42,651 nucleotides of DNA from a virus (taxonomy: Duplodnaviria > Heunggongvirae > Uroviricota > Caudoviricetes): positions 1-42,651 of IMG/VR virus record IMGVR_UViG_2700989535_000001, one strand, 5' to 3'. The notes below the pieces were generated by a model that saw nothing but the letters and a program-made list of their open reading frames with translations, was not told the origin of the DNA and searched no databases. Below, one piece after another: positions 1,778 through 41,643 of the stretch. Position 1 is the stretch's first letter. Each line of letters opens with the position of its first letter. The translations under genes and the position numbers were made by a program.

Positions 1778-1978
1778 TTACCCATTGGCGCGGCTTAAGA
1801 GCTTATTTTTGAATTCACAATGGTCACGATATAACCATCTTGCTCGCCCGTGGATAACTTTGGCTTTAGGCAGGTCTCCGGACTTAATCCGGTCATAGAT
1901 GAAGGTTTTACCGAAGCCAGTATCGGCCATGATGAATTTCAAATCAACCAGGGAATCAGGCTGTAGTTCGTGTTGCAT
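1778..1978 (-). CDS. torI: Excisionase / recombination directionality factor, TorI-like (AlpA-type winged helix)
   Basis: 66-aa ORF; recalled near-identity to KplE1 TorI (MQHELQPDSLVDLKFIMADTGFGKTFIYDRIKSGDLPKAKV...); sits at the prophage end opposite int, as in K-12 KplE1. Confidence 0.75.
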   Translation of the reverse strand: MQHELQPDSLVDLKFIMADTGFGKTFIYDRIKSGDLPKAKVIHGRARWLYRDHCEFKNKLLSRANG

Positions 1979-1997
1979 GAGTGCTATCTCCGAATAG

Positions 1998-2013
1998 GGA
2001 ATCGAACCTGCAA
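1998..2013. other. tRNA-Arg T-arm-like fragment (GGAATCGAACCTGCAA), 16/16 match to 41584..41599
   Basis: Direct sequence identity to the argW segment immediately adjacent to the att core; flanks diverge. Confidence 0.5.
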
Positions 2014-2033
2014 ATCAGGTAATAAAAAAACCG

Positions 2034-2054
2034 CATTGATGCGGCGATGGTAGG
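2034..2054 (-). terminator. Intrinsic terminator for the leftward early transcript, upstream of torI
   Basis: Minus-strand hairpin CCGCATcaATGCGG followed by a T7 run. Confidence 0.5.
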
Positions 2055-2122
2055 TCTGGATATCTTGATAAATGAAAATGCCTCATCGAGTGTGAGGCGG
2101 TGTGATTTCTTTATTTCCACTC

Positions 2123-2338
2123 TTAATGTTTGTCAGTGAATGGTTTCTCCATCTCCATTAATGCCTTATTCATCTCATTTCGTAGCTCTATAGCCATCCT
2201 GACGGCTTCAACTTGTGCAGGATGTCGGTTAATTGCTGGAGAATATCGTCGGGAGCGAAGGATTGAGAAAACAAAGATAATGCAAGCAACTATCTGAATT
2301 GCATTGCATATTATTGATACAATGTGGATTGCAGCCAT
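2123..2338 (-). CDS. Hypothetical small protein with hydrophobic N-terminus
   Basis: 71-aa ORF with an N-terminal hydrophobic stretch (about 25 aa); lies between two terminator-like hairpins, so expression is doubtful. Confidence 0.25.
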   Translation of the reverse strand: MAAIHIVSIICNAIQIVACIIFVFSILRSRRYSPAINRHPAQVEAVRMAIELRNEMNKALMEMEKPFTDKH

Positions 2339-2352
2339 CTACTACCCCAAAT

Positions 2353-2371
2353 AAAAAACCGCCATCAGGCG
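2353..2371 (-). terminator. Intrinsic terminator-like hairpin at the end of the 55-aa ORF
   Basis: Minus-strand CGCCtgatGGCG hairpin followed by a T6 run. Confidence 0.4.
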
Positions 2372-2532
2372 TCTTGGTGTTCTTTCAGTTCTTCAATTCG
2401 AATATTGGTTACGTCTGCATGTGCTATCTGCGCCCATATCATCCAGTGGTTATAGCAGTCGTTGATGTCCTCTGCTTCGATAACTCTGTTGAATGGTTCT
2501 CCATTCCATTCACCTGTGACTCGGAAGTGCAT
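2365..2532 (-). CDS. Hypothetical small phage protein (55 aa)
   Basis: ATG-initiated ORF MHFRVTGEWNGEPF..., below the track's 60-aa cutoff; ends in the terminator hairpin. Confidence 0.35.
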   Translation of the reverse strand: MHFRVTGEWNGEPFNRVIEAEDINDCYNHWMIWAQIAHADVTNIRIEELKEHQDA

Positions 2533-2604
2533 TTATCATCTCCATAAAATAAAACCCGCCGTAGCGAGTTCAGATAAAAGAAATCCCCGCGAGTGCGAGG
2601 ATTG

Positions 2605-2889
2605 TTATTCGGTGCCGATATTTACCTTTATCGCGAACACCTTTACCGGTTTATCGCCGAAGTGCGGATGTGTGATTGTCTTGATTTCATACCCTTCATA
2701 CGGGACGTCAATTCTGCGACTGAAGTCGTCGCGCTTCGGATATCCCTTTGTGATAATCAGACGGTCATACTCACGGAGCATAATTCGCTTATTCCAGTAG
2801 TCATTACACAGGCGATACTCTTCTGTTTTCTCTCCGCGAATCATGGCATCGAAGTATTCACCTTTGACGGCAAGTTGTAGGTTAGCCAC
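2605..2889 (-). CDS. ASCH/DUF3850-like (PUA-fold) small protein
   Basis: 94-aa ORF; pattern GEYFDAMIRGEKTEEYR...LREYD...GY resembles the ASCH-like family seen in phage early regions (recalled). Confidence 0.5.
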   Translation of the reverse strand: MANLQLAVKGEYFDAMIRGEKTEEYRLCNDYWNKRIMLREYDRLIITKGYPKRDDFSRRIDVPYEGYEIKTITHPHFGDKPVKVFAIKVNIGTE

Positions 2890-3184
2890 GGTTAACCTCC
2901 TGCGGAGTAGCCTTTACAAGCACTGGTGTAAATCCATCTTCATTAAGGTTATGAATATAGACTTCCGTTCTCCTGCGCTCTTCAACGTTTAATATTGTTT
3001 CTGGATCATAAACCCATACTTTCATTCGACTATTCCATGAAGAAATCGCTTCAGATTTAGTTCGTTTTTCTGGTCCTTGGGCACCACATTTGCATGACAC
3101 ATAGCGCATTTTCCCTCTGATACTGAATGAGTATCCGATGTTAAGCACAGTGGAACCACAGAATGGGCAGCGATATAGATTCAT
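2882..3184 (-). CDS. Lar-family restriction alleviation protein (zinc-ribbon N-domain) with C-terminal extension
   Basis: CPFCGS...CKCG cysteine motif typical of Lar-family proteins; overlaps neighbours by a few nt (operon packing). Confidence 0.6.
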   Translation of the reverse strand: MNLYRCPFCGSTVLNIGYSFSIRGKMRYVSCKCGAQGPEKRTKSEAISSWNSRMKVWVYDPETILNVEERRRTEVYIHNLNEDGFTPVLVKATPQEVNRG

Positions 3185-3666
3185 AAATCATCCACCTTAG
3201 GCGCAGCTGAGACAGCAACATTCCAGAACTCAGAAAACATATTGTATGCACCAGATAGATTGGAAGTGGCATACCCTCCAAGCTCACTTCTAATCTGAAC
3301 GGCTCTCATCATTTCCGGGGTTAACTCCTTCGGCACCATAACCCAACCATCCGGAGTTACCGGCACTGGCTTGGCGGTATAAAGCGGTGTTATATCTGCC
3401 CGAAAATTACATGCTTTATGCAGACGTACCCACCGTTCGACTTCTGCTTTGTCAGAATACATACCAGTGAACGTGTTATATTCACGATCAATTTGCGTGA
3501 ATGTTACCTTCCACGCCACCGGTTCTGCTTCCAGCGATGCCAGCGCCAACTTGAACGCCTGAAGCCAAATGGCACTGTTGGTATCCAGTCCAAACGGTAA
3601 TTCATCACGATTGGCTTCGTATTCAGCGATAGTTTGCTTCAGCCATTCTTTGGTTAGTTCAGCCAT
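3181..3666 (-). CDS. Hypothetical early-region protein
   Basis: ORF taken from the internal Met (MAELTKEW...), which starts 5 nt after the upstream gene's stop; the longer version would overlap the upstream gene. Confidence 0.5.
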   Translation of the reverse strand: MAELTKEWLKQTIAEYEANRDELPFGLDTNSAIWLQAFKLALASLEAEPVAWKVTFTQIDREYNTFTGMYSDKAEVERWVRLHKACNFRADITPLYTAKPVPVTPDGWVMVPKELTPEMMRAVQIRSELGGYATSNLSGAYNMFSEFWNVAVSAAPKVDDL

Positions 3667-5432: not shown

Positions 5433-5981
5433 TTATTTAGCTAATTTTTTCCAGATTGCTGAAACGTATTTGGCTTGGTGAATGGCATCATCAAGCGCGT
5501 TGTGGCGAGTTCCTTTGAATGGCATATCTCGCTTAGGGTCGAATCCTATTACCTTCCCAAGTTCGACGATTGTTCTTACGTCGCGGTCATTCCACCACTG
5601 CCACGGAACTGGCTGCCCTGTCAGCGAATAACTGTTTCGGAGAATAACGCAGTCAAATGATGCTCCATTCCCCCAAACCTGAACGAATTTGTGGTTAGCG
5701 TTCTTTATGATGAATTCAGATAACCATGAAAGAGCCGTTGAAAGCTCCTGAGTGTTGCTGGTTAGCGATTTTCTGGCTTCTTCACTCTGTTCCAGCCACC
5801 ATAAAATCGTTGAAGCGTCAGGACGCGCTCGATATCGCATTGATGACTCAAGCGAGATATTTACCGAGAACTCTTCTCCTGTTTCTCCGGTATTCGGGTC
5901 AAAGAATACCGCCCCAATAGAAATAACTGGCGCGTATGGCCCGTTGCCCATTGTTTCAAGGTCAACCATCAAGTGATTCAT
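5433..5981 (-). CDS. DnaQ-like 3'-5' exonuclease (DEDD family)
   Basis: N-terminal Exo I motif (MVDLETMG) and later H..DA motif (HNALDDA) typical of DEDDh exonucleases. Confidence 0.7.
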   Translation of the reverse strand: MNHLMVDLETMGNGPYAPVISIGAVFFDPNTGETGEEFSVNISLESSMRYRARPDASTILWWLEQSEEARKSLTSNTQELSTALSWLSEFIIKNANHKFVQVWGNGASFDCVILRNSYSLTGQPVPWQWWNDRDVRTIVELGKVIGFDPKRDMPFKGTRHNALDDAIHQAKYVSAIWKKLAK

Positions 5982-5989
5982 GTAAGTCC

Positions 5990-6505
5990 TTAAATTGCGT
6001 GAATAGCGTGACGAGGGAAGGGGAGAGTTACTGGTGCAAAGGGGATATCGTCGTCAAAATCCATAGGTGGTTCGCTGTGATTTCCCTGCTGCTGAGGTTG
6101 CTGTCTTTGTTGCTGACCATTATTTCGCTGAGGTGAAGACTGTTCATTGCCTCCTTGCTTGCCACCAAGCATTTGCATGGTTCCACCAACGCCCACGATG
6201 ACTTCGGTAGTGAACCGATCCTGTCCGCTTTGATCCTGCCATTTTCTTGTCCGCAATTTGCCTTCAAGATAAACCTCAGAGCCTTTTCGCAGATATTCGC
6301 TGGCAATTTCTGCCAGTTTCCCGCTCATTACCACGCGGTGCCACTCCGTCTGCTCCTTTTGCTCTCCAGTTTGCTTATCACGCCATTGTTCTGACGTAGC
6401 AACGGTAAGGTTTGCAAATGCCGTTCCTGATGGTGAATATCTGATTTCTGGATCATGCCCAAGGCGACCAATAATGATCACCTTATTTACGCCTCTGCTT
6501 GCCAT
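5990..6505 (-). CDS. ssb: Single-stranded DNA-binding protein with a 15-aa extension after the DDDIPF tip
   Basis: Strong recalled similarity to E. coli SSB over the OB fold ([10 protein letters not shown]...TEWHRVV...[13 protein letters not shown]), Gly/Gln-rich linker and MDFDDDIPF motif, then [15 protein letters not shown] before the stop. Confidence 0.9.
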
Positions 6506-7213
6506 TTATGCCGCCTGTTTTAGCTCGTTAACTCTGATGTTCATTACCTGAACGCATTTAGCCTGCGCCTCCTCGTTTCCAGCCATTAATTGCCAGTCAC
6601 GCTGATAACGCTCGATGAGTTTTTTCTTGTCAGTTTCTGTTGACGCATAATCGCTGAAGTCTTTCAGGATTTGTTCGCAGTCAACCGATGGAGATTTCTG
6701 GTTGGTATTTTCTGGTGATGGTTTGTTATCTGATGCTGGGATTGCCCACCCCGGCAGTGATGGAGGGAGCCAGTAAAATCCTGTTCCATCCTTCAGTTTT
6801 GCCCTGTGCCACCCCTGCTTTTTATCGAGAGATGTTTGTGCGAAACCTTCCTCAAGGTTATACAGATACCGACCGATTCCCCACTGAACGGCAGCGCGCT
6901 TCATTGCACCGGAACGACCACCTTTGACGGCTTCTACCTGCGTGTTTTCAGCAGCATCCCATTTGGTTACCCATTCGGAATCAATCTTTATTGATATGCC
7001 GCATTCAACGCCGCCGTTGTTGGGAATATCGCGGTATTCATTGCGCCATCCTGCTTTGCCGCAAACATCGTCCAGGCGTTTCATTATTGCCCGGTTCGTG
7101 ACATAAGCCAGCACCATAGCCCACACTTTGCCATCGCGTGTTTTACCGCTTTGCTGTATTCGCCATTCGATATCTTCAGGGCTGAATGGCTCATCGAATT
7201 TATTCAAATCCAT
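6506..7213 (-). CDS. Single-strand annealing recombinase (Erf-like C-terminus; N-domain with GIGRYLY motif)
   Basis: C-terminal about 45 aa recalled as P22 Erf-like (ATETDKKKLIERYQ.DWQL...KCVQVMNIR.NELKQ); sits in the erf/bet position beside ssb. Confidence 0.65.
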   Translation of the reverse strand: MDLNKFDEPFSPEDIEWRIQQSGKTRDGKVWAMVLAYVTNRAIMKRLDDVCGKAGWRNEYRDIPNNGGVECGISIKIDSEWVTKWDAAENTQVEAVKGGRSGAMKRAAVQWGIGRYLYNLEEGFAQTSLDKKQGWHRAKLKDGTGFYWLPPSLPGWAIPASDNKPSPENTNQKSPSVDCEQILKDFSDYASTETDKKKLIERYQRDWQLMAGNEEAQAKCVQVMNIRVNELKQAA

Positions 7214-37389: not shown

Positions 37390-38820
37390 TTATTTTAACT
37401 TTATTACAATAATGTCTTTGGTTGCATGAATGCTATATATATTATTGTCAGAAATTAGATTCCCATTATCTGATATTGATACAGCTTTGTCTGCAGCTGA
37501 TGGCTCAGCGCTAACAACATCTTTTAGTCCATTTCTCATCAATGTAAAAACTCCGCCATCATATCTATTTGTAAATATAGGTGGCAATATATCAGATATT
37601 ACTGGAAATATTTTCTTGTTTATGCTTGCGACAGATGAGTTCTTCGCGTAGCCGTCAATAACAATAAAATCGAGATATTTGGCTTTACTATTATTAATAT
37701 CATTGATCATTTGAAGTGATAAATTATTTTGGAATTTAAATTCTTCTCGTGAAGCATTAATTGTCGCAAAGAATATGGACAGCATGGGAATTGCAATGAA
37801 TAATGACAGCAAGTAATTAATTCTCCAATTAAGGATCACTGAGCCAATCAAAGGAAGCGCCATTATAAAGACACCAAATCCGATAAATATCCTTGATACA
37901 AATACTGGTGATTTGCCAAACACAGACACACCAAAAGAGGAAAAGAAGCAACCAAATATAGATATTGCAATAAAAAATAGTAATTGAAATTTCTTTCGTT
38001 TAATAGCGAAAAACACAGATGATATGGCTATTATTGATAGAAATATATAAAGAGGTATTCCAATACCACTATGAAGAGCAACATCAATTTTTCTAACTGC
38101 GTTAATTATATTCTCATAAACATTGATGACTCCACCTTTATTTAATTCAACTATTTGAGCATATTTCGAGAAGTTATTGTTTAAAGATAATGATTCAAGT
38201 ATTAATTTTGAGTATATAATATATGAAGAGACTACACATGTGACAGATAATAGCACTCTGCTGGCTATTGATGTAAACTTTTCCCCTTTCAATGCTTCCA
38301 TTGCAACCACTACTGATGCAAGCCCAATGTACACATTTATTGAGGCCTGATACAATCCAAGCGATATTGTTAGGCACAGTAGTGATGATATGGCGAATGT
38401 TCTACTTTTTGTAAAAATGAATGGAATAGCAGAAAGTGCAATAGATAAAATCATAAATGCACCATCATATCTAAATAGCATATTAGACAAAAGAAAAGGG
38501 TTAAGCATAAATATTGCAAAAGTTATATTAACTATAACCCCATCTTTTGATAGTATATTTTGCAATGCCTTTGTTAGTGATATAACAAGAAGCACAGACG
38601 TTAAAACTAGTGGTAGTGGGTAAATATCTGGTATGCTTTCAGATCTAAAGAAAATAAATGATTTATAGAATAAATCTGCAAAAGGCCTTCCATCTTCAGA
38701 CCAACCATAATATCCCCAATACGATCTAAATACATCATCATAGTAGTAAATATTACATGTTATAATAAAAAACAAAATAACAAATAGTATGAAGTAGTTG
38801 ATTTTAATTGTTTTATTCAT
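37390..38820 (-). CDS. Serotype-specific O-antigen glucosyltransferase (GtrC-type polytopic membrane protein)
   Basis: 476-aa ORF with many TM segments, immediately downstream of gtrB in an operon; very AT-rich. Confidence 0.65.
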
Positions 38821-39737
38821 TTTTTCTTTCTCTTAACAATGAATCTAGGTCTATCTTTGCACTCTATGTAAATTCTTCCTATATATTCACCAAGCACGCC
38901 AATTCCAATGAGTTGAATCCCTCCTAAGAAAAGAATGGACACAATAAGTGATGGGTATCCCCTAACCGGATTGCCAAAAACCAAAGTGTCGATAATCATC
39001 CATGTGCCATATAAAAGAGCCATTCCTGCGACGAATAGCCCAATATAAGTCCACATACGCAGAGGGAAAGTGGAAAAGCTTGTTATACCTTCAAGTGCTA
39101 GGTTCCATAATTTCCACCCATTGAATTTCGTGCTGCCAGCTACACGCTCAGCACGGACATACTCAACAACATCTGTATCCCCACCAACCCAACTAAGAAT
39201 ACCTTTCATGAAAAGATTGCGTTCTGGCAGGAGCTTAATATTCTCCACTACCTCGCGAGACATCAGCCTGAAATCTCCAACATTTTCCTCTATCTGCGGA
39301 TTGCTTATTTTATTGTGGAGCTTATAGAACCACTCAGCCGTTTTTCGCTTCAGTCTGCCATCCGTTGAGCGGTCAGATCGTTTAGCAAGCACCATATCAG
39401 CGCCTGCCTGCCATTTTTCAATCAGTTGAGGTATTACCTCAATCGGGTCTTGCAGGTCAACATCAATAGGAATAACAGCATCGCCTGTTGCATGGTCTAA
39501 CCCTGCAAACAATGCTGGTTCTTTACCAAAGTTGCGCGTAAATGACAGCGGAACAACTAGCGGATCAGAAACAGCCAGAGCGTTAATTATTGACTCTGTA
39601 GAGTCTTTGCTGCCGTCATTTATGAAAACAATTTCCACCTCATATGGCTTCAACTCTTCGAATTCACGTACCGTTTTATAAAAAATTGGTATCGCTTCTT
39701 CTTCATTGAAGACAGGAACTACAAGAGATATCTTCAT
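38817..39737 (-). CDS. gtrB: Bactoprenol glucosyltransferase GtrB (GT2 family)
   Basis: Recalled near-identity to E. coli YfdH/GtrB ([17 protein letters not shown]...); two C-terminal TM helices. Confidence 0.9.
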
Positions 39738-40096
39738 TTCGCATCCCTAAAGACAATGAACTTTGAATATACGAAACCGCACACCAGGCTGATGGCGGAG
39801 AAAGTGATAAGGGTTAGCATCGGGGGAAGTGCGCATCTATCAGCAGCCCATCCAACAGTTGCACTCAGTGTTCCCATGAACCCGACATATAACATGTAGC
39901 GCATCGTTGTAGTCGATGCTTTGAATGTGAATTTTGCATTCGCGAAGAAGCTAAAACTCACAGCCACAACGAAACCTGCGAAGTTTGCCAGAGCCTGATT
40001 TGTATGCGCGGCATAGATACATACACCAAAAACCACCCAGTGTATAAGTGTGTTCAGCACACCAATCGAGGTGTACTTTGCAAATAGCTTTAACAT
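39734..40096 (-). CDS. gtrA: GtrA flippase (bactoprenol-linked glucose translocase)
   Basis: 120-aa 4-TM protein; recalled near-identity to E. coli YfdG/GtrA. Confidence 0.9.
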
Positions 40097-40249
40097 TTCT
40101 TCTGTCAGCTAATAATCAAAGGCATGAAGTCTATCATCCAAGTCTCAATCGATCGATGACTTGCTGTGGTTGATAAGACAAAACTGAGACAAACAAAGCT
40201 TTATACTGGATTGCAAGGCTTTGTGCTCTTCGATAGTGGTTAAGGTGGA

Positions 40250-41407
40250 TCACTCCACATTTTCATCAATCCAGTCCGCCCACCATTGCATCATTTCTCT
40301 GCGTTTATCGAGATACTGAGCATGGTTGTAAATCCCGCGCACAGATCCGCCGTTGGCATGTGCCAGTTGCACTTCAATAGCATCAGCAGGCCATTCGTGC
40401 TCGTTCATAATCGTGCTGAATTCATGCCTGAATCCGTGACCGCTTTCCAGACCCTCATAGCCGATTTGTTTGATCACAAGCAATACCGCGTTCTCGCAGA
40501 TTGGCTTCTTCTTATCGTTGCGCCCGGCAAAAACAAACTCTGATACTGGTTTGGTGATTGAGCTTAGCGTAGTGAGAAGTTCAACTACCTGGTCTGACAT
40601 AGGAACCACATGAATTTTGCGTCCCTTCATCACATTGGCGTCGATGGTGATAATCCTGTTTTCAAAATCGACGTTCTTCCATTGCATGGAACGAAGCTCT
40701 TTCGTTCTTAGGGCTGTGTAGCGTAAAACTTTGGTCGCAATGAGCGATACGATACTTCCTGAAAATGTTGCCAGTGCTTTGTTGAATGCAGGGATCTGGT
40801 CTGCAGGAAGAAACGGGAAGTTCTTCTTGCGGTATCCCTTCATGGCGTCAGCAAGGTCAGGTGCCGGGTTATATTTAGCCCTGCCGGTGACAATAGCGTA
40901 ACGGAAAACCTCGCCGCATCTTCTGCGGGCTTTGTTGGCTCTCTCCATTGCGCCGCGATCTTCAAATCTGCGGATTACTTCCAGCAGTTGCATCGGCTCA
41001 ATATCTTGAATTTCAAGGCCGCCGATGATAGGTAAAATGTCGTCATCAAACATTTTTGCAAGTTCAGTCGCATACCCTACTGACCATACTTGCTTCTTGT
41101 GCTCGTACCATTCTTTGTAAATCGCACTAAAGGAATTGTTGTTAGACGAAGCCTTTTTCGCTTTTACCGGATCGATGCCAACCGAGATGTCTTTCCTCGC
41201 AGTCCATGCTTTATCCCTTGCCTCCTGCAAAGTCATAAGCGGATATTTTCCTACGGTCAGTATTTTTTCCTTACCGTCAATCTTGTAGCGAAGCTGCCAT
41301 ACCTTTTTCCCGGATACAGGGACATAAAGGTACAGGCCATTACCATCGAGAAGGCGGTATGGTTTTTCTTTCGGCTTTGCTGCTTCAATCTGCTTAACGG
41401 TGAGCAT
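40250..41407 (-). CDS. intS: Tyrosine integrase (P4-type, IntS-like)
   Basis: Recalled similarity to K-12 IntS from MLTVKQIEAAKPKEKPYRL; catalytic HGFRHEF and RGIYNHAQY motifs; adjacent to the tRNA and att core. Confidence 0.85.
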   Translation of the reverse strand: MLTVKQIEAAKPKEKPYRLLDGNGLYLYVPVSGKKVWQLRYKIDGKEKILTVGKYPLMTLQEARDKAWTARKDISVGIDPVKAKKASSNNNSFSAIYKEWYEHKKQVWSVGYATELAKMFDDDILPIIGGLEIQDIEPMQLLEVIRRFEDRGAMERANKARRRCGEVFRYAIVTGRAKYNPAPDLADAMKGYRKKNFPFLPADQIPAFNKALATFSGSIVSLIATKVLRYTALRTKELRSMQWKNVDFENRIITIDANVMKGRKIHVVPMSDQVVELLTTLSSITKPVSEFVFAGRNDKKKPICENAVLLVIKQIGYEGLESGHGFRHEFSTIMNEHEWPADAIEVQLAHANGGSVRGIYNHAQYLDKRREMMQWWADWIDENVE

Positions 41408-41568
41408 GGGTAAAAATCCGGTGGGTAAAATTATTTTATCCACTTTTTACCCGTCATGGAGTGCGGCTGTCAACGATCTGACGCGAACCATTACGAACTG
41501 TGAATCTACGGAAGGCTTGATATTCAGGGGATTTTGCGGACTGGTACGGATGGGAGCGAACTGATAAA

Positions 41569-41583
41569 TGGTGTCCCCTGCAG
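41569..41583. repeat. att core copy (TGGTGTCCCCTGCAG) overlapping the tRNA-Arg 3' end
   Basis: Exact direct repeat of 1690..1704. Confidence 0.8.
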
Positions 41584-41643
41584 GAATCGAACCTGCAATT
41601 AGCCCTTAGGAGGGGCTCGTTATATCCATTTAACTAAGAGGAC
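41569..41643 (-). tRNA. argW: tRNA-Arg (anticodon CCU)
   Basis: 75-nt sequence whose reverse complement reads GTCCTCTTAGTTAAATGGATATAACGAGCCCCTCCTAAGGGCTAATTGCAGGTTCGATTCCTGCAGGGGACACCA with CCA end; cloverleaf-compatible. Confidence 0.9.

Follow-up and report, generated by a model that had tools for sequence, protein, structure and literature searches.

The free C-terminal phenylalanine of SSB, the bacterial single-stranded DNA-binding protein, counts as the universal docking site for the SSB interactome of bacteria, and the canonical pockets for this C-terminal tip (SSB-Ct) in ExoI, chi, PriA, RecQ and RecO require both the Phe side chain and a free alpha-carboxylate. Free-standing homing endonuclease genes are known to split or truncate the genes that host them, as mobE does in nrdA of Aeromonas phage Aeh1. 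Among phage SSBs, the NDYPPF tail of the HK620 protein binds Sak4 as its cognate partner (PMC5928155), and the lambdoid SSB-1 proteins have so far been the subject of no experimental study (PMC12315714). The window analysed here, the 42,651 nucleotides of IMG/VR virus record IMGVR_UViG_2700989535_000001, contains an ssb gene whose product retains the host tip and then continues. We propose, with a probability of roughly 0.5 for the explanation as a whole, that this extension is real and selected, that the gene is the empty-site allele of a mobile-element SSB family, and that the added residues form a motif that caps the tip.

The ssb gene (5990..6505, minus strand) comprises 171 codons followed by a TAA stop codon that is read on the reverse strand (5990..5992), and its product matches PF00436 (E=2e-38) and TIGR00621 (184.7 bits, the cutoff being 53.95). 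An OB-fold ssDNA-binding domain (residues 6–105, 6191..6490, the PF00436 span) is followed by a linker (residues 106–145, 6071..6190) that is rich in Gln, Gly and Pro and assigned as disordered from its composition and from AF2 pLDDT values below 50 over residues 114–171. The acidic tip (residues 146–156, 6038..6070), the same 11 residues that end E. coli SSB, is internal here, and the post-tip extension (residues 157–171, 5993..6037) adds 15 more. In an end-to-end alignment with E. coli SSB, identity is 62% and Phe156 pairs with the terminal Phe178, so the 15 residues of the extension lie beyond the host terminus. All curated SSB models found in the model search also end at residue 156: residues 1–156 match positions 1–177 of the 177 in NF006533, and residues 4–156 run to the end of TIGR00621 (165/165). 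The OB fold, the disordered linker and the acidic tip DFDDDIPF thus fit the bacterial-type homotetrameric SSB class, but the Phe of the tip is not the last residue with a free alpha-carboxylate, as 15 residues follow it. The preliminary description of a canonical SSB with an internalised tip and 15 extra residues is therefore borne out by both the translation and the alignment, and the interval it gave, 5990–6055, corresponds exactly to DDDIPF (codons 6055..6038, read on the minus strand), the extension and the stop codon.

The ATG of ssb abuts the stop codon of the upstream gene (taaATG), which encodes a single-strand annealing protein of the Rad52/Rad22 family (Erf-like; 6506..7213, minus strand; PF04098 E=5e-26, in agreement with annotations in related phages). 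Downstream, 8 nt after the ssb TAA, is the ATG of a gene for a DnaQ-like 3'-5' exonuclease (Rv2179c-like; 5433..5981, minus strand; PF16473 E=3e-73). The three genes together form a P22-like prophage's recombination module. Upstream of its ATG the exonuclease frame stays open for another ∼26 codons, reaching back across the extension as far as DFD (5981–6062). This is probably a coincidence, since loci with abc2 in place of the exonuclease do not keep the open frame. A −1 frameshift at CCC-TTT-G, by which SSB would be joined to the exonuclease frame, was considered and rejected, as the arrangement is not kept when abc2 comes after ssb (ECP1). At the right end of the prophage (37390–41643), minus-strand ORFs of 476, 306 and 120 amino acids putatively form a gtrCBA-like O-antigen glucosylation operon, judged by size and order only. 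The next ORF in line (397 amino acids) encodes a putative integrase and is adjoined by a tool-predicted tRNA-Arg(CCT) (41569–41643) that is probably the attachment site.

The extension is not private to this genome. The identical SSB protein is found on 934 contigs, its 90%-identity cluster has 1030 members, and a 621-bp region is present at ≥99% identity in 45 complete E. coli genomes. Of 5426 complete E. coli genomes, 299 have an unbroken junction between tip and extension, as followed by BLAST with a 101-nt probe. The 120 nearest 90%-identity clusters (75–98% identity), which span E. coli, Klebsiella, Citrobacter, Salmonella and Enterobacter, include 116 with the extension, and the same tail is carried by phages ECP1, mEp235, mEpX2, HK75, epsilon34, g341c and HZ41. 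The 90%-identity cluster of the window SSB also holds 98-residue proteins labelled "DUF2856 / anti-RecBCD", presumably a clustering artefact. After loss of a stop codon the chance of 15 open codons is about (61/64)^15=0.5; an open run of this length is therefore not unusual, and it is the conservation rather than the length that makes the feature real. The preliminary description had asked whether related phages share the extension and had named common carriage as grounds for refuting its reading; related phages do carry it commonly. The dominant-interfering SSB that it also offered is neither favoured nor disfavoured by these comparisons. This SSB sequence is common and is as a rule annotated as just "SSB".

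A motif profile was built from 103 distinct extensions (1533 positions). The extensions are 14–16 residues long, 65% being of exactly 15, with the consensus A-P-[IV]-[GT]-L-x-[YF]-P-R-H-x-[IL]-[HY]-x-[IL]-COOH. That of the window fits the broader pattern [AS]-P-[IV]-[GT]-L-x-[YFH]...[IL]-[HYN]-x-[IML]-COOH as well as a tail HMM, and its subtype carries Thr at +4 in place of Gly. Counting from the tip, position +1 is Ala in 81 extensions, +2 is Pro in 86 or Gly in 9, +4 is Gly in 74 or Thr in 26, +5 is Leu in 85, and +7 is Tyr, Phe or His. Towards the C-terminus, Arg or Lys occupies −7, Ile or Leu −4, and Ile, Met or Leu −1 (in 83 of the 91 extensions of 14–15 residues). Charged residues are predominantly basic (87 versus 15 acidic), and the last five residues are nonpolar (mean Kyte–Doolittle value +1.9). 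The acidic tip is invariant in the tail alignment of extension-bearing SSBs. A beta-clamp-binding motif was rejected as an interpretation of the extension, the near-invariant Gln of QL[SD]LF / QLxLxL being unmatched, with Gln at +6 in 44 of 103.

The breadth of the motif was examined by tblastn with the tip plus extension and then by searching 1.84 billion representative proteins with a tip-plus-extension profile. The profile search recovered ∼50 distinct 50%-identity clusters with the extension, in proteins of 46–480 residues, and IMG/VR contains 419 confirmed contigs with tip and extension. DDDIPF is followed by a 15-residue extension in Cronobacter JK004, by APIGLPYPRHAIYVI in Proteus V3, by APVGLQYGRNLLHVI in Vibrio V039C, by APIGLQYGMSNIYVL in the T1-like ACG-M12, by APIGLQYARHAIHAI in Acinetobacter ABPH49 (413 residues), by APIGLPYGRNFIHCI in Klebsiella Seu621 (406 residues) and by APIGLQYGRNFLHCF in Mt1B1_P17 (310 residues). 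The ABPH49, Seu621 and Mt1B1_P17 proteins are non-canonical and SSB-like, lacking an SSB-domain match and resembling SSB models at the tip alone; the motif-bearing proteins of rV5-like and Phapecoctavirus phages are of this non-canonical type. SSBs of the IncN conjugative plasmids pTR4 and pCVMN1543 end in the tip plus extension, so that carriers of the motif include lambdoid/P22-like, T1-like, rV5-like and Phapecoctavirus phages together with IncN plasmids, on differing SSB scaffolds. In pTR4 (1939–3287), a gene for a SprT-family zinc metalloprotease lies convergent with the extended ssb, 30 bp away in the anti-restriction leading region, a neighbour that might bear on processing of the tail. 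Searching genome contigs with the tip pattern alone gave, among the matches listed, mostly chromosomal ssb genes ending at the tip and a few extended prophage copies (Proteus, Sodalis, Trabulsiella, Scandinavium and Chimaeribacter). A profile search of the PDB found the extension in no chain. The motif is not mentioned in PMC5928155, PMC10061031, PMC13490951, PMC2629481, PMC12315714 or the Retron-Eco8 preprint, nor elsewhere in the searchable literature, where coverage of subscription journals is patchy and an earlier description is possible. Both the motif, as a conserved feature beyond the tip, and its connection with homing endonucleases appear to be new to the literature.

Selection on the extension was assessed with 17 DNA haplotypes of the window's subtype, comparing the three reading frames. 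In the SSB frame pS is 0.41 and pN 0.043 (pN/pS 0.10), versus 0.082 and 0.184 in the second frame (pN/pS 2.25) and 0.018 and 0.200 in the third (pN/pS 11). Distant phages encode the same extension residues with other codons. The low in-frame ratio, together with codon change under retained residues, argues that the peptide is translated and constrained, and the comparison of haplotypes indicates that strong purifying selection acts on the extension in the SSB frame. The gene after the extended ssb is an exonuclease in 39 loci, abc2 in ∼28 and others elsewhere, and in some extension-bearing loci the next gene is on the opposite strand. A translational coupling element is ruled out by this variation.

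Between near-identical phages, the boundary between tip and extension is also where endonuclease genes are found. The putative insertion point is Phe156|Ala157 (6038|6037), as given by the DNA junctions of Sf6, CurroJimenez, Huey and phiKp_30, and among E. coli genomes the BLAST matches to the junction probe are interrupted there, at its positions 38 and 41. In Sf6, IME10, N7 and CurroJimenez_Bas106 the SSB ends in PPMNFDDSDIPF and a stop codon, and a 160-codon HNH ORF comes next in the same frame. This Sf6-type ORF ends in the 14 extension codons, the in-frame insertion having given the endonuclease the last 14 codons of SSB; a GenBank note for Sf6 had already flagged 14 residues in common. 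CurroJimenez_Bas106 has a 480-bp HNH ORF inserted between flanks that are both 98.5% identical to the window, Huey has a 48%-identical HNH protein with the same end as the Sf6 type, and phiKp_30 retains a decayed HNH copy at the ssb tip. At the same Phe|Ala boundary ES18 carries an unrelated endonuclease (gp47, HNH_3, PF13392), its SSB ending in MNFDDEIPF and a stop. A 156-residue Salmonella SSB allele, which occurs on at least 1000 contigs, has that ending and an HNH_3 endonuclease gene after it. By sequence comparison, therefore, two unrelated HNH types, Sf6 gp26 and ES18 gp47, insert at Phe|Ala and leave an SSB with a free tip.

In the HNH-bearing alleles, window-homologous DNA extends to CCACCTATG and restarts at CCAGTAACT, and the tip itself is recoded, GATTTTGACGACGATATCCCCTTT becoming AACTTCGACGATTCGGATATTCCGTTC-TAG in Sf6, CurroJimenez and phiKp_30. 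Recoding of the tip where the gene is present is the pattern expected if the cassette protects its own target. The codons for DFDDDIPF/APVT (6026..6061, minus strand), which are recoded or interrupted in HNH-bearing alleles, are the putative empty homing site of the window. Sf6 gp26 has no Pfam match; it matches phrog_2340 "endonuclease" (2.6e-47) and shows homology to I-KsaII, a named intron endonuclease from a Staphylococcus phage (E=1e-20). The phrog_2340 profile stops at gp26 residue 143, the HNH homologue of Pectobacterium DU_PP_IV ends without the tail, and in Mt1B1_P17, ACG-M12 and ABPH49 the HNH homologues lie beyond the stop of an SSB that is intact and extended. The reverse history, in which the tail is the native HNH C-terminus and the extended SSB is a deletion scar, is rejected given the end of phrog_2340, DU_PP_IV and the in-frame selection. 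Since the tail is foreign to the HNH family and gp26 is akin to I-KsaII, the window has the uninterrupted, empty-site allele. We consider that the Phe|Ala boundary is probably a homing site and the window its empty form, cleavage and inheritance being putative.

Several features of these loci may be added. At the Sf6 (1516–2478) and Huey (1516–2460) loci, SSB, HNH and the 14 extension codons lie in one frame with one stop codon and 3–5 codons between SSB and HNH, such that read-through of the stop would yield an SSB–HNH–extension fusion. In Vibrio phage D460 (∼1690–1720) the tip is broken (DFDDDRS-stop-DIPF-stop) directly upstream of a gp26-type HNH gene, which is either a real disruption or a sequencing problem. 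Six or more unrelated groups of phages (Certrevirus, Phapecoctavirus, Guelphvirus, Vequintavirinae and two types of Vibrio phage) have genes of the gp26 type (phrog_2340) right beside an SSB gene, which suggests that this family is specialised on the 3' ends of ssb.

As the canonical pockets bind a free carboxylate, capping the tip should abolish or change docking, and retention of the host-identical tip implies that the tip still matters. We propose that the extension works as a short linear motif, one that would cap the tip: a peptide bond takes the place of the free alpha-carboxylate of Phe, and the chain ends in a new terminus that is hydrophobic. Tip and extension together could act as a composite motif that filters or retargets partners. 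The factors engaged by single-stranded DNA under a coat of mobile-element SSB would then be a filtered set, or a different one. Blocking of host partners as the sole purpose would leave the strict conservation of a host-identical tip unexplained. Altered partner binding, as a trait of the whole family, is a plausible and, on present comparisons, the most reasonable functional reading; the specific capping or retargeting mechanism is put forward tentatively, at somewhat less than even odds. As the carriers have no other gene in common and their SSB cores differ, whatever reads the motif is likely a host factor; it is most likely that either a host factor reads it or the tail acts alone. Sf6, CurroJimenez_Bas106 and ES18 are viable phages whose SSB stops at IPF. 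Together with the 156-residue Salmonella allele they indicate that growth does not require the extension on SSB, and its role therefore looks accessory or regulatory.

Structure prediction is neutral on how such a motif might dock and on whether it could form a hairpin. AF2 modelling of full-length SSB from a shallow alignment gave a beta-barrel-type strand pattern over residues 21–113 with modest confidence and pLDDT below 35 for the tail. The tail alone, modelled from a diverse 39-sequence alignment, reached pLDDT 61 with neither secondary structure nor a hairpin. The extension is thus predicted to be disordered and accessible, and the low-confidence tail models lend no structural support to any docking mode.

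The main rival to the capping proposal is a C-terminal degron or processing signal, in which a host AAA+ protease (ClpXP, ClpAP, FtsH or Lon) would read the nonpolar C-terminus. The SSB would then be short-lived, or would be trimmed either to a free IPF tip or with loss of the whole tail. Cytoplasmic proteins of E. coli become unstable when their last five residues are nonpolar, and the ClpX signal at the C-terminus of MuA has a basic residue before Ala-Ile. The extensions have nonpolar ends (AIHAI, AIYVI, LLNCM, FLHCF), often after Arg or Lys, which are common at −7. The strongly nonpolar last five residues (+1.9), the predominance of Ile, Met or Leu at −1 (83/91) and the fixed length of 14–16 residues, as if the terminus itself were read, all favour this interpretation, as does the predicted accessibility of the disordered tail. 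That the extension can be dispensed with in endonuclease-bearing phages also fits a regulatory role. As a candidate proteolysis tag of the ssrA or MuA kind, the extension has a nonpolar C-terminus that is predicted to be accessible, and instability itself is putative. However, it is the N-terminal half next to the tip that is best conserved (Ala 81, Pro 86, Gly 74 and Leu 85 of 103), which a simple degron would not need, and type-2 variants (YPALLNCM) contain no basic residue. We regard a degron, or its trimming variant, as unlikely, with a probability of perhaps a fifth.

Less probable still is an intramolecular cap, in which a turn at Pro(+2)/Gly(+4) would fold 11 residues of the extension back onto the acidic tip and keep it auto-inhibited until ssDNA or a partner releases it. 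Turn-compatible residues are kept at +2 (Pro 86 or Gly 9) and at +4 (Gly 74), the ∼11 residues past the turn equal the length of the acidic tip, and the excess of basic residues (87 versus 15 acidic) is complementary to its charge. Against such folding, the tail model from the 39-sequence alignment shows no predicted hairpin or secondary structure, the subtype of the window has Thr at +4, and the tip is nearly invariant, which leaves no covariation to weigh.

It is highly improbable that the extension is a non-functional by-product, whether a scar of endonuclease excision or read-through into intergenic DNA maintained just as a mosaic boundary or as the ribosome-binding region for the following gene. 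A comparison with mEp235 (window 5975–6037) gives some substance to this view, as the extension, the start of the exonuclease gene and the downstream DNA are 100% identical and the ssb bodies just 78%. Identical extensions on divergent bodies imply a recombination (mosaic) boundary at or near the tip, and the Sf6 HNH ORF ends in the same 14 codons. A by-product would, however, scarcely show a pN/pS of 0.10 in the SSB frame only, nor would distant phages keep its residues through different codons. The motif is also retained at loci with another gene downstream or with one on the opposite strand, and the HNH family profile and distant HNH homologues are without the tail. Finally, the sequencing or assembly error, or the recent stop-codon loss confined to this genome, that the preliminary description had allowed for is favoured only by the odd appearance of the tail and is refuted: hundreds of complete genomes, each assembled independently, share the identical junction, as do phage isolates (for error, the 934 contigs and the 299 intact E. 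coli junctions; for recent loss, the 116 of 120 clusters and the purifying selection). That the extension is functional and conserved as a peptide, as opposed to an error, is thus very likely.

In its broadest form, the proposal is of a portable "capped SSB-Ct" module in the mobile elements of Gammaproteobacteria (temperate and lytic phages and IncN plasmids) that may reprogramme which of the host's genome-maintenance or proteolytic factors come to mobile-element ssDNA coated with SSB, with HNH genes toggling between capped and free tips, a generalisation we offer as possible rather than probable. If it is true, the DNA encoding the capped SSB-Ct is conserved enough for two or more families of HNH endonuclease to share it as a homing site, and homing endonucleases aimed at the DNA that encodes the SSB tip would be of interest in their own right. 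The SSB tip interface is a drug target, and here is a large, selected class of SSBs that retains the tip letter for letter yet buries it. A capped tip would point to an overlooked control by phages and plasmids over what is recruited to their own single-stranded DNA. The result matters for recombineering as well, given that Erf/Rad52 modules are where these SSBs are encoded. Near-isogenic pairs with capped and free tips exist naturally, the window or mEp235 on one side and CurroJimenez or Sf6 on the other.

Compared with known systems, the window SSB resembles E. coli chromosomal SSB in its OB fold, its disordered Gln/Gly/Pro linker and the identity of its tip to the last 11 host residues, and differs from it in that E. 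coli SSB ends at Phe whereas the window adds 15 conserved residues beyond every curated model. Sf6 gp27, ES18 gp48 and the 156-residue Salmonella allele are closer, with bodies >95% identical and the same Erf–SSB module. Unlike the window, they end in a tip that has been recoded (to MNFDDSDIPF or to MNFDDEIPF before the stop codon) because an HNH gene sits right after the Phe codon. The relationship between these alleles is like that of mobE and nrdA, with an ORF in a highly conserved coding stretch, adjacent recoding, and presence or absence between near-identical genomes. It is unlike mobE/nrdA in that the window holds the uninterrupted target alone, homing being read from comparison of alleles. 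Finally, the HK620 SSB that binds Sak4 (PMC5928155) and T7 gp2.5, with its terminal Phe, are also phage SSBs with a short linear motif at the C-terminus, which in their case recruits a cognate partner. In both, the aromatic residue is still C-terminal, whereas in the window SSB a conserved peptide follows a tip identical to that of the host.
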